Assembly: GCA_044892505.1 (NCBI GenBank)
Contig: CM097882.1
Location: 410,750,001-410,814,000 of the forward strand
DNA from: Schmidtea nova
Taxonomy: Eukaryota
DNA: 64,000 bases
Direction: 5' to 3'
Shown piece after piece: positions 25,631 to 26,014 of this stretch; position 1 is the first letter of the stretch, and each line of letters begins with the position of its first letter. The notes under the pieces were generated by a model. It searched no databases, was not told where the DNA came from, and worked only from the letters and a program-made list of their open reading frames with translations. Made by a program: the position numbers and the translations under genes.

Positions 25631-26014
25631 TTATACTTTGAACATAGAATTAAGCCATGCAAGGCAATGTTGACCACAAGTAATTGTTAATGGATGTTGA
25701 TACCGAATTCGATTATATACAATAGGTTTACCTAAAGTTTGAAGTTTACTAACTAATAAACTTGGATAGTAACATCCGAATGGATCAAATGCATATACTT
25801 TGATTGGTTTCACATATACAGCAATCCAATGTTCACCACCTAAAGTAGATGATTGAGTATTGACGACCATGGCTTGATTGATATCTAAATAAGGGATTTT
25901 ATCTAGTGGATAGACGCCAATAAATTCATTTCCCAATAATTGTTTTCCAATTCGATTAACCTGAATAGAACTAGATAAATAGATTTATTTGATAAATAAT
26001 AAAACTTACTCCAT
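25631..26014 (-). CDS. PRO: Adenain-like cysteine (maturation) protease, 114 aa, join(26014-26010, 25970-25631)
   Basis: Catalytic H (GEHW), D (FDPFG), Q (YQHP) and C (TCGQHC). The main frame has no upstream ATG; ATGGA|GTAAGT...TATCTAG|T gives MDSIQVNRIGKQLLGNEFIGVYP (39-nt intron 26009-25971). Confidence 0.9.

Follow-up and report, generated by a model that had tools for sequence, protein, structure and literature searches.

A conserved start-proximal intron and a second acceptor site in the protease gene of a Maverick/Polinton from Schmidtea nova

The window, i.e., the whole 64,000-nt stretch of the Schmidtea nova contig that was analysed, contains an intact-looking Maverick/Polinton (Table 1). 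The termini of the element (AGTAGT...ACTACT) bound long terminal inverted repeats with AG-rich ends, whose arms are 96–99% complementary. A 6-bp target duplication, TTAAAC, flanks the element on both sides and is single in the empty repeat unit of the 1287-bp tandem array into which it is inserted. About 30 copies of the array unit (1285–1289 bp, 93–100% identity) occupy positions 1–18128 and 33986–54000 of the window, and they encode ORFs of 106–123 codons with no Rfam or Pfam match. Positions 54500–63700 include fragments that resemble several DNA transposases by their motifs, and a run of N near 61330–61470. An Rfam search of the window returned nothing.

Based on Pfam matches above the cut-off, the element encodes an integrase (rve), a packaging ATPase (Pox_A32) and an adenain-like protease (Peptidase_C5). 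The TBP-like ORF has relatives of 42–53% identity in nine loci, intron-bearing and intronless alike. The gene upstream of the protease presumably encodes the major capsid protein, judging from gene order and family motifs; the capsid-like ORFs had no Pfam match, and their order is as expected and conserved in relatives. The minor-capsid-like ORF is matched by two tandem genes in two related loci (L010 and L011). The polymerase-like ORF carries motifs that we take to be Pol A, B and C, and it had neither a Pfam polymerase match nor a PDB sequence match. Its residues 698–736 form an Endonuclease VII-like stretch below the Pfam cut-off, with no pfam03175 match, and the ORF resembles the pPolB2 class with an HNH domain as described in the available part of bioRxiv 2023.08.22.554363. 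The Cys/His-rich N-terminal part of this ORF (23586–23380, minus strand) resembles a separate small gene of the relatives, which has two introns in L003 (1590–1900) and L006 (1480–1790) and none in L011 and L013. The likeness starts ahead of the first Met of the polymerase in the window; an upstream exon or a fusion is possible. Terminal inverted repeats, a 6-bp target duplication, an integrase, a packaging ATPase and an adenain-like protease, together with the polymerase-like ORF and the presumed capsid genes, are shared with the animal Mavericks/Polintons, including adintoviruses, in the accessible text of the reports on them (PMC8097293; bioRxiv 2022.07.12.499685; PMC8502044).

Table 1. Features of the element and of its protease gene (positions in the window).
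Feature	Position	Strand	Remarks
Whole Maverick/Polinton	18129..33985	.	15,857 bp (~15.9 kb), intact-looking
Polymerase-like ORF	19365-23669		1434 codons
Predicted introns of the Asn-rich gene (four, phase 1)	24794-24745, 24666-24616, 24540-24491, 24415-24365	-	50-51 nt; predicted from sequence only
Exon 2 of the protease gene, adenain-like cysteine protease body	25631..25970	-	112 codons after the junction codon
TTG, proposed alternative start	25934..25936	-	Exon-2 codon 12; not conserved; within the predicted first helix
Second acceptor CAG	25961..25963	-	Out of frame; 10 nt downstream of the productive acceptor
Predicted phase-2 spliceosomal intron of the protease gene, GTAAGT...TAG	25971..26009	-	39 nt in total, 85% AT; productive acceptor
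Coding part of exon 1 of the protease gene	26010..26014	-	ATG 26014-26012 and two bases, GA 26011-26010; ATG invariant in 11/11 aligned loci
TATAAA box of the protease gene	26042..26047	-	33 nt before the ATG, within the 41-nt spacer that follows the capsid stop codon
Presumed major capsid protein gene	26056..27276	-	Upstream of the protease gene; own TATAAAC 42 nt before the ATG
Predicted integrase-core intron	29297..29340	-	44 nt, phase 1; rve match
TBP-like ORF	31079..31552	+	PF00352, E 9.9e-15
Predicted intron in a small ORF	31669..31718	+	50 nt; predicted in the same way as those of the Asn-rich gene
TATA-like motifs, minus strand	26047, 27318, 28748, 30377, 31021, 25635	-	Spacing similar in relatives
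TATA-like motif, plus strand	32413	+	Spacing similar in relatives

The preliminary description of the protease gene had placed a splice between ATGGA and the protease body. The arrangement ATGGA-GTAAGT...TAG is present as described on the minus strand, with the correction that 39 nt is the length of the whole intron, donor and acceptor included, and not of the sequence between them. The five bases had been called a micro-exon; they are the coding part of the first exon rather than an internal exon. No YAG that could serve as an upstream acceptor occurs within 40 nt before the ATG in the window, none has a shared position in the relatives, and a TATA box lies there. Based on the usual TATA spacing, the whole first exon is probably about 5–15 nt long. 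The unspliced RNA does read Met-Glu-stop, while splicing to the first acceptor would, as judged from conservation, give a protease of 114 residues. Exon 2 corresponds to PF00770 (Pfam), with H47, D62, Q91 and C98 (exon-2 numbering) invariant. The model of exon 2 (pLDDT 90) aligned with the adenovirus protease over 111 residues (Z 13.4, rmsd 1.8). Since model residues 1–112 superpose on residues 5–136 of the adenovirus chain, a Met two codons earlier is predicted to land beside the adenain N-terminus.

Conservation of the intron was assessed in 40 related loci, 39 from an alignment-based scan of metagenome contigs and one viral. Ten of them have the intron; 18 more distantly related ones lack it and have their ATG in the corresponding position. 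Of the remainder, six are distant loci whose N-termini are long, and in six the region is missing. The ten carriers, all metagenome relatives, show ATG-NA, a GTAA donor and a YAG acceptor at the codon and phase of the window. Two near-copy pairs leave nine distinct carriers (47–59% protease identity to the window), and the few sample series from which they come limit the breadth of hosts. In the 11 loci, window included, the ATG, donor and acceptor are invariant and the rest of the spacer is unconstrained. The donor is GTAAGT in seven, GTAATT in three and GTAAGA in one. The lengths of the orthologous introns (37–43 nt) fall into all three mod-3 classes (3/4/4 when the window is counted), so that the stretch cannot be coding, and the near-copies L010 and L011 differ by 2 nt within it. 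Similarity in the interior does not exceed composition (27 of 500 shuffles of nine introns reach it), and RNA structure over the intron gave weak energies, calculated without a shuffle control. The GT-AG ends, consensus donor, conserved position and phase, and free length and interior are traits of U2-type introns.

The pattern ATG-NA|GTAA...YAG occurred at 39 of 138,160 background positions, real sites included, and in the window it was found at the protease site and at one spot in the Asn-rich gene. Contigs from four runs (kind unrecorded) contained many diverged copies, some of which, in every run, carry a one-base insertion inside the intron; this fits any non-coding reading of that stretch. 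None of the joints listed for these contigs (15 of 860) lay at the protease or integrase intron, and this result is uninformative. In viral contigs, the protease query recovered one distant locus, and the alignment and capsid queries recovered none. A search of genome contigs yielded two loci. A motif scan of the same contigs gave 120 loci, which were rejected as chance matches, none matching any protein of the element; the motif alone is therefore not specific at that scale.

The sharing of codon and phase confirms, at the level of sequence comparison, that the intron is real, and the need of the protease for its removal at the first acceptor appears strongly supported. It is very improbable that the gene is read without splicing, from TTG 25936 or from the first in-frame ATG of exon 2 (residue 34, 25870), or that it is a pseudogene, with splice-like signals arising by chance. 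Prokaryotic gene callers do start several homologs at such codons, but the TTG is not conserved among carriers, and a start there would remove most of helix 2–15, which is confidently modelled (pLDDT 90–96) and aligned to adenain. The invariance of ATG, donor and acceptor in an otherwise unconstrained spacer speaks against chance, and the intact ORFs, termini and target duplication of the element speak against a pseudogene. Two loci, L004 and L010, retain an upstream in-frame ATG, which could bypass splicing.

The claim that splicing gates the protease is upheld as far as the need for splicing is concerned, whereas the Met-Glu-stop reading is no argument for a gate. An in-frame stop is found in all 11 carriers, at codon 3 in ten and at codon 2 in one, and any phase-2 GTAA donor puts TAA in frame. 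We therefore reject the stop as a designed gate and regard it as a by-product of the donor.

Other protein records bear traces of the intron. Among 135 classified database proteins, 84 start with a Met that precedes the G-V-[FY]-P motif by 17–20 residues. The read-through label, with Ser at the junction, was given to 27, although it was wrong for P0064 and P0120. The read-through signature of ATG-NA|GTA was present in 10 of the 11 database proteins with at least 15 residues before the junction. In the capsid tree (midpoint root; near-copy L011 and short L015 left out), one branch with a support of 100/100 separates eight carriers from 11 intronless loci, requiring one change. Taking the capsid tree together with the intronless state of other Mavericks, we infer a single gain in the stem of this Maverick lineage as the simplest reading. 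The protease tree, built by a quick method from 121 columns and too weak for such a purpose, also places the carriers in one branch (support only 84–87). About 12 Met-starting proteins fall inside that branch, and two of them, P0004 and P0018, adjoin the window; their Met starts would reflect spliced transcripts or intron loss, and should they be genomic, loss of the intron is possible.

The element has six further predicted short introns. That of the integrase gene does not occur in L002, L008, L011 and L028 and is missing in 3/3 other carriers that have the region. The Asn-rich gene (24843–24198, minus strand) consists of duplicated 75–78-nt exons with at least four introns and has no relative among the loci. 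Together with the two introns of the small gene in L003 and L006, these point to short introns as a habit of this lineage, in which they come and go across genes. The protease intron is the only one common to the lineage among the core genes tested. It is also the shortest in comparison with the others, with 39 vs. 44–51 nt in the window, 38 vs. 42–44 nt in L003 and 37 vs. 41–42 nt in L006; in L013, a candidate intron of 41 nt ties with that of the protease.

A TATAAA/TATAAAC-like motif precedes the ATG of seven genes by 33–44 nt (35–44 nt in the six neighbours of the protease gene). Each gene thus seems to be driven by a promoter of its own, with only a very short leader, and the motifs, together with the TBP-like ORF, may constitute an element-specific promoter system. 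Ten of the 11 intron-bearing loci have ATAAA at −31 to −34 (background 0.024), and all 18 intronless ones have it at −70 to −74. The motif is accordingly about 39 nt nearer to the protease ATG in carriers, and its distance to the protease body is about 77–84 nt in both groups.

A second acceptor, absent from the preliminary description, lies just inside exon 2. Its use would give a 49-nt intron, similar in size to the others of the element (44–51 nt), and a dead frame of 20 codons. All 11 carriers have an AG 7–10 nt downstream of the productive acceptor. A YAG at +7 to +10 is present in 9/9 distinct carriers, against an expectation of 3.3 given the residues and codon usage (P 7e-5 for independent loci), and in 2 of 15 intronless relatives, where 2.3 are expected. 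No second YAG was found in the six other introns of the window or in the two informative small-gene introns of L003 and L006. The site is made by differing codons (Gln CAG at +7 or +10, Ile/Leu-Glu at +8) and is always frame-shifting, with the shifted frame, which varies between loci, ending after 3–33 codons. Among 556 four-codon windows of the protease, capsid and next ORF, the two covering the second YAG ranked first and second (next best P 0.004). The test was post hoc, with P ~0.04 after correction for the 556 windows, and it draws on related loci from a small number of sample series. On this statistical showing, the second YAG appears to be conserved beyond the needs of the protein and kept by selection, which lends some support to control at the level of splicing.

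We tentatively favour, at somewhat less than an even chance, the reading that the second YAG is a competing acceptor which throttles protease output. The protease gene would be transcribed from its own TATA promoter with a very short leader, and the intron would separate the ATG and two bases from the protease body, so that host splicing to the first acceptor yields the protease. The second YAG would compete with the first. Closely spaced AGs are described as competing, CAG prevailing over TAG, in the available text of PMC2018619. In the window, the second acceptor is CAG followed by G and the productive one TAG followed by T. The second site would thus offer an intron of the usual size in an equal or better context, beside an unusually short productive intron, and for these reasons a steady share of transcripts would be frame-shifted and lost. 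Splicing could in this way hold down the amount of a low-stoichiometry protease relative to the capsid genes, whose promoters are similar, while timing would more likely come from the TATA promoters, perhaps, speculatively, via the TBP-like protein. On the other hand, splicing usually favours the AG closest to the branch point (PMC2018619, in the part available), and use of the second AG may therefore be slight.

The same site could also be read as harmless. The intron may be an ordinary constitutive one, in which the first AG is joined and the second YAG helps the 3′ splice-site factors or acts as an exonic enhancer, with no loss and no control; we consider this only slightly less probable than a throttle. 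All carriers have T or C directly behind the productive AG, and a purine follows the second AG in 9/9. The codon at the junction leaves room only for a pyrimidine behind the productive AG, so a YAG-purine slightly further on could give a better grip. One AG can aid a neighbouring AG, in the opposite orientation in the case described in the accessible part of PMC2018619. A plain intron would also fit the strong donors, the unconserved interior and the gain and loss of short introns across the genes of the lineage. Start-proximal introns are, moreover, common in eukaryotes, where the excess described in the available text of PMC1626468 is of phase 0 directly after the ATG, whereas here the intron, likewise placed right at the beginning of the coding region, is of phase 2 in codon 2 and belongs to a mobile element. 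Against a helper stands the absence of a second YAG from every other short intron examined, though most of these have a purine after the AG and hence no need of one, and a frame-shifting competitor would be a costly aid to splicing.

The comparison with adenovirus late splicing drawn in the preliminary description does not hold in its general form. The protease gene has its own TATA-like promoter and its ATG in the spliced exon, the intron interior is not conserved, and similar introns are predicted in the integrase gene and in two small genes. By contrast, the adenovirus late unit uses one late promoter and an AUG-less tripartite leader spliced onto many bodies, and its control examples are the L1 52,55K/IIIa choice, L4-33K and 3RE/3VDE, as far as the available text of PMC4346872 and PMC7851563 goes. 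Adenovirus choices each lead to a different protein; here, the alternative would be a dead frame, with an own promoter and the ATG in exon 1. The proteases are homologous, and in this gene, too, there could be a choice between 3′ splice sites in which the required site has the weaker context. Control of a weak 3′ splice site is the one point at which the analogy could hold, L4-33K being described in the accessible part of PMC4346872 as acting on weak 3′ splice sites.

Such control would amount to a regulated switch, in which retention or the dead acceptor is the default and a host or element factor activates the weak productive acceptor late or in some tissues, separating transposon from particle mode. 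We regard this as unlikely. In its favour are the conserved second acceptor, the protease intron being alone common to the lineage among the core genes tested, and the activation of late adenovirus mRNAs by L4-33K through a choice between weak and strong acceptors (PMC4346872, in the text available). However, the intron has no conserved internal element or stable structure, and there is no shared leader or common late promoter. No telling Pfam match to a splicing regulator, and no splicing-factor domain, was seen among the ORFs of the element, most of which have no match at all, and the intronless relatives do without such a switch. With the same low probability, virion maturation would be gated at one splice choice, where a shift by stage, tissue or an element-encoded factor decides on the protease and mature particles. 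If this were true, the junction ratio would be a direct read-out of an endogenous Maverick entering viral mode. Because of the conserved second acceptor, a count of junction reads could tell plain splicing, throttle and switch apart.

For the P-element third intron, production of a mobile-element protein depends on the choice of splicing, and Sex-lethal exon 3 has a dual-AG site, at which nearby AGs can cooperate or compete. Those cases, unlike the present one, rest on experiments and known regulators. In mastadenoviruses, the upstream exon of pTP holds only three codons. As in the protease gene, pTP has two coding exons with the start in a separate upstream one, but its intron spans kilobases and the shared exon serves two genes, against 39 nt and one gene here (PMC11304566, as far as available). 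Introns inside Polinton-like elements are also represented by introners in dinoflagellate Maverick-like elements (PMC11957031) and by group I introns in cryptophyte PLVs (PMC12220804). Those introns, which occur in protist hosts, are self-splicing RNAs or insertions that arose recently from transposons, in contrast to the old, diverged and position-conserved short GT-AG intron in a core gene described here.

In the accessible text, 134 intact vertebrate elements have intronless ORFs (PMC8097293), the core genes of nematode (Caenorhabditis) elements are intronless (bioRxiv 2022.07.12.499685), and introns of described animal Mavericks occur in cargo genes only (PMC8097293; bioRxiv 2022.07.12.499685; PMC8502044). 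Unlike in those elements, the protease and integrase genes are here split by predicted short spliceosomal introns, and that of the protease is conserved across a diverged lineage. Intronless core genes are a descriptive trait outside the definition of the Maverick/Polinton family, and this element departs from it. Our literature search turned up no account of a spliceosomal intron in the protease gene of an animal Maverick, the available parts of PMC2836005, PMC6431247, PMC11296320 and PMC8502044 containing nothing on one; older Polinton papers, Repbase and supplements may annotate such introns. What the window adds is the conserved start-proximal intron position and the second acceptor.

Since core genes are described as intronless and found by ORF scans, the protease of this lineage is given a wrong start or looks broken in databases, and many database entries are read-through or truncated proteases of this kind. 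The retention of the intron across elements only 47–59% identical in the protease argues that their genes have long been transcribed and spliced in host nuclei under selection. Such long selection for splicing supports a working particle stage, which has not been observed in animals. A further relative of the protease (46% identity, L161) was found on a contig binned into a bacterial MAG and is probably mis-binned eukaryotic DNA.
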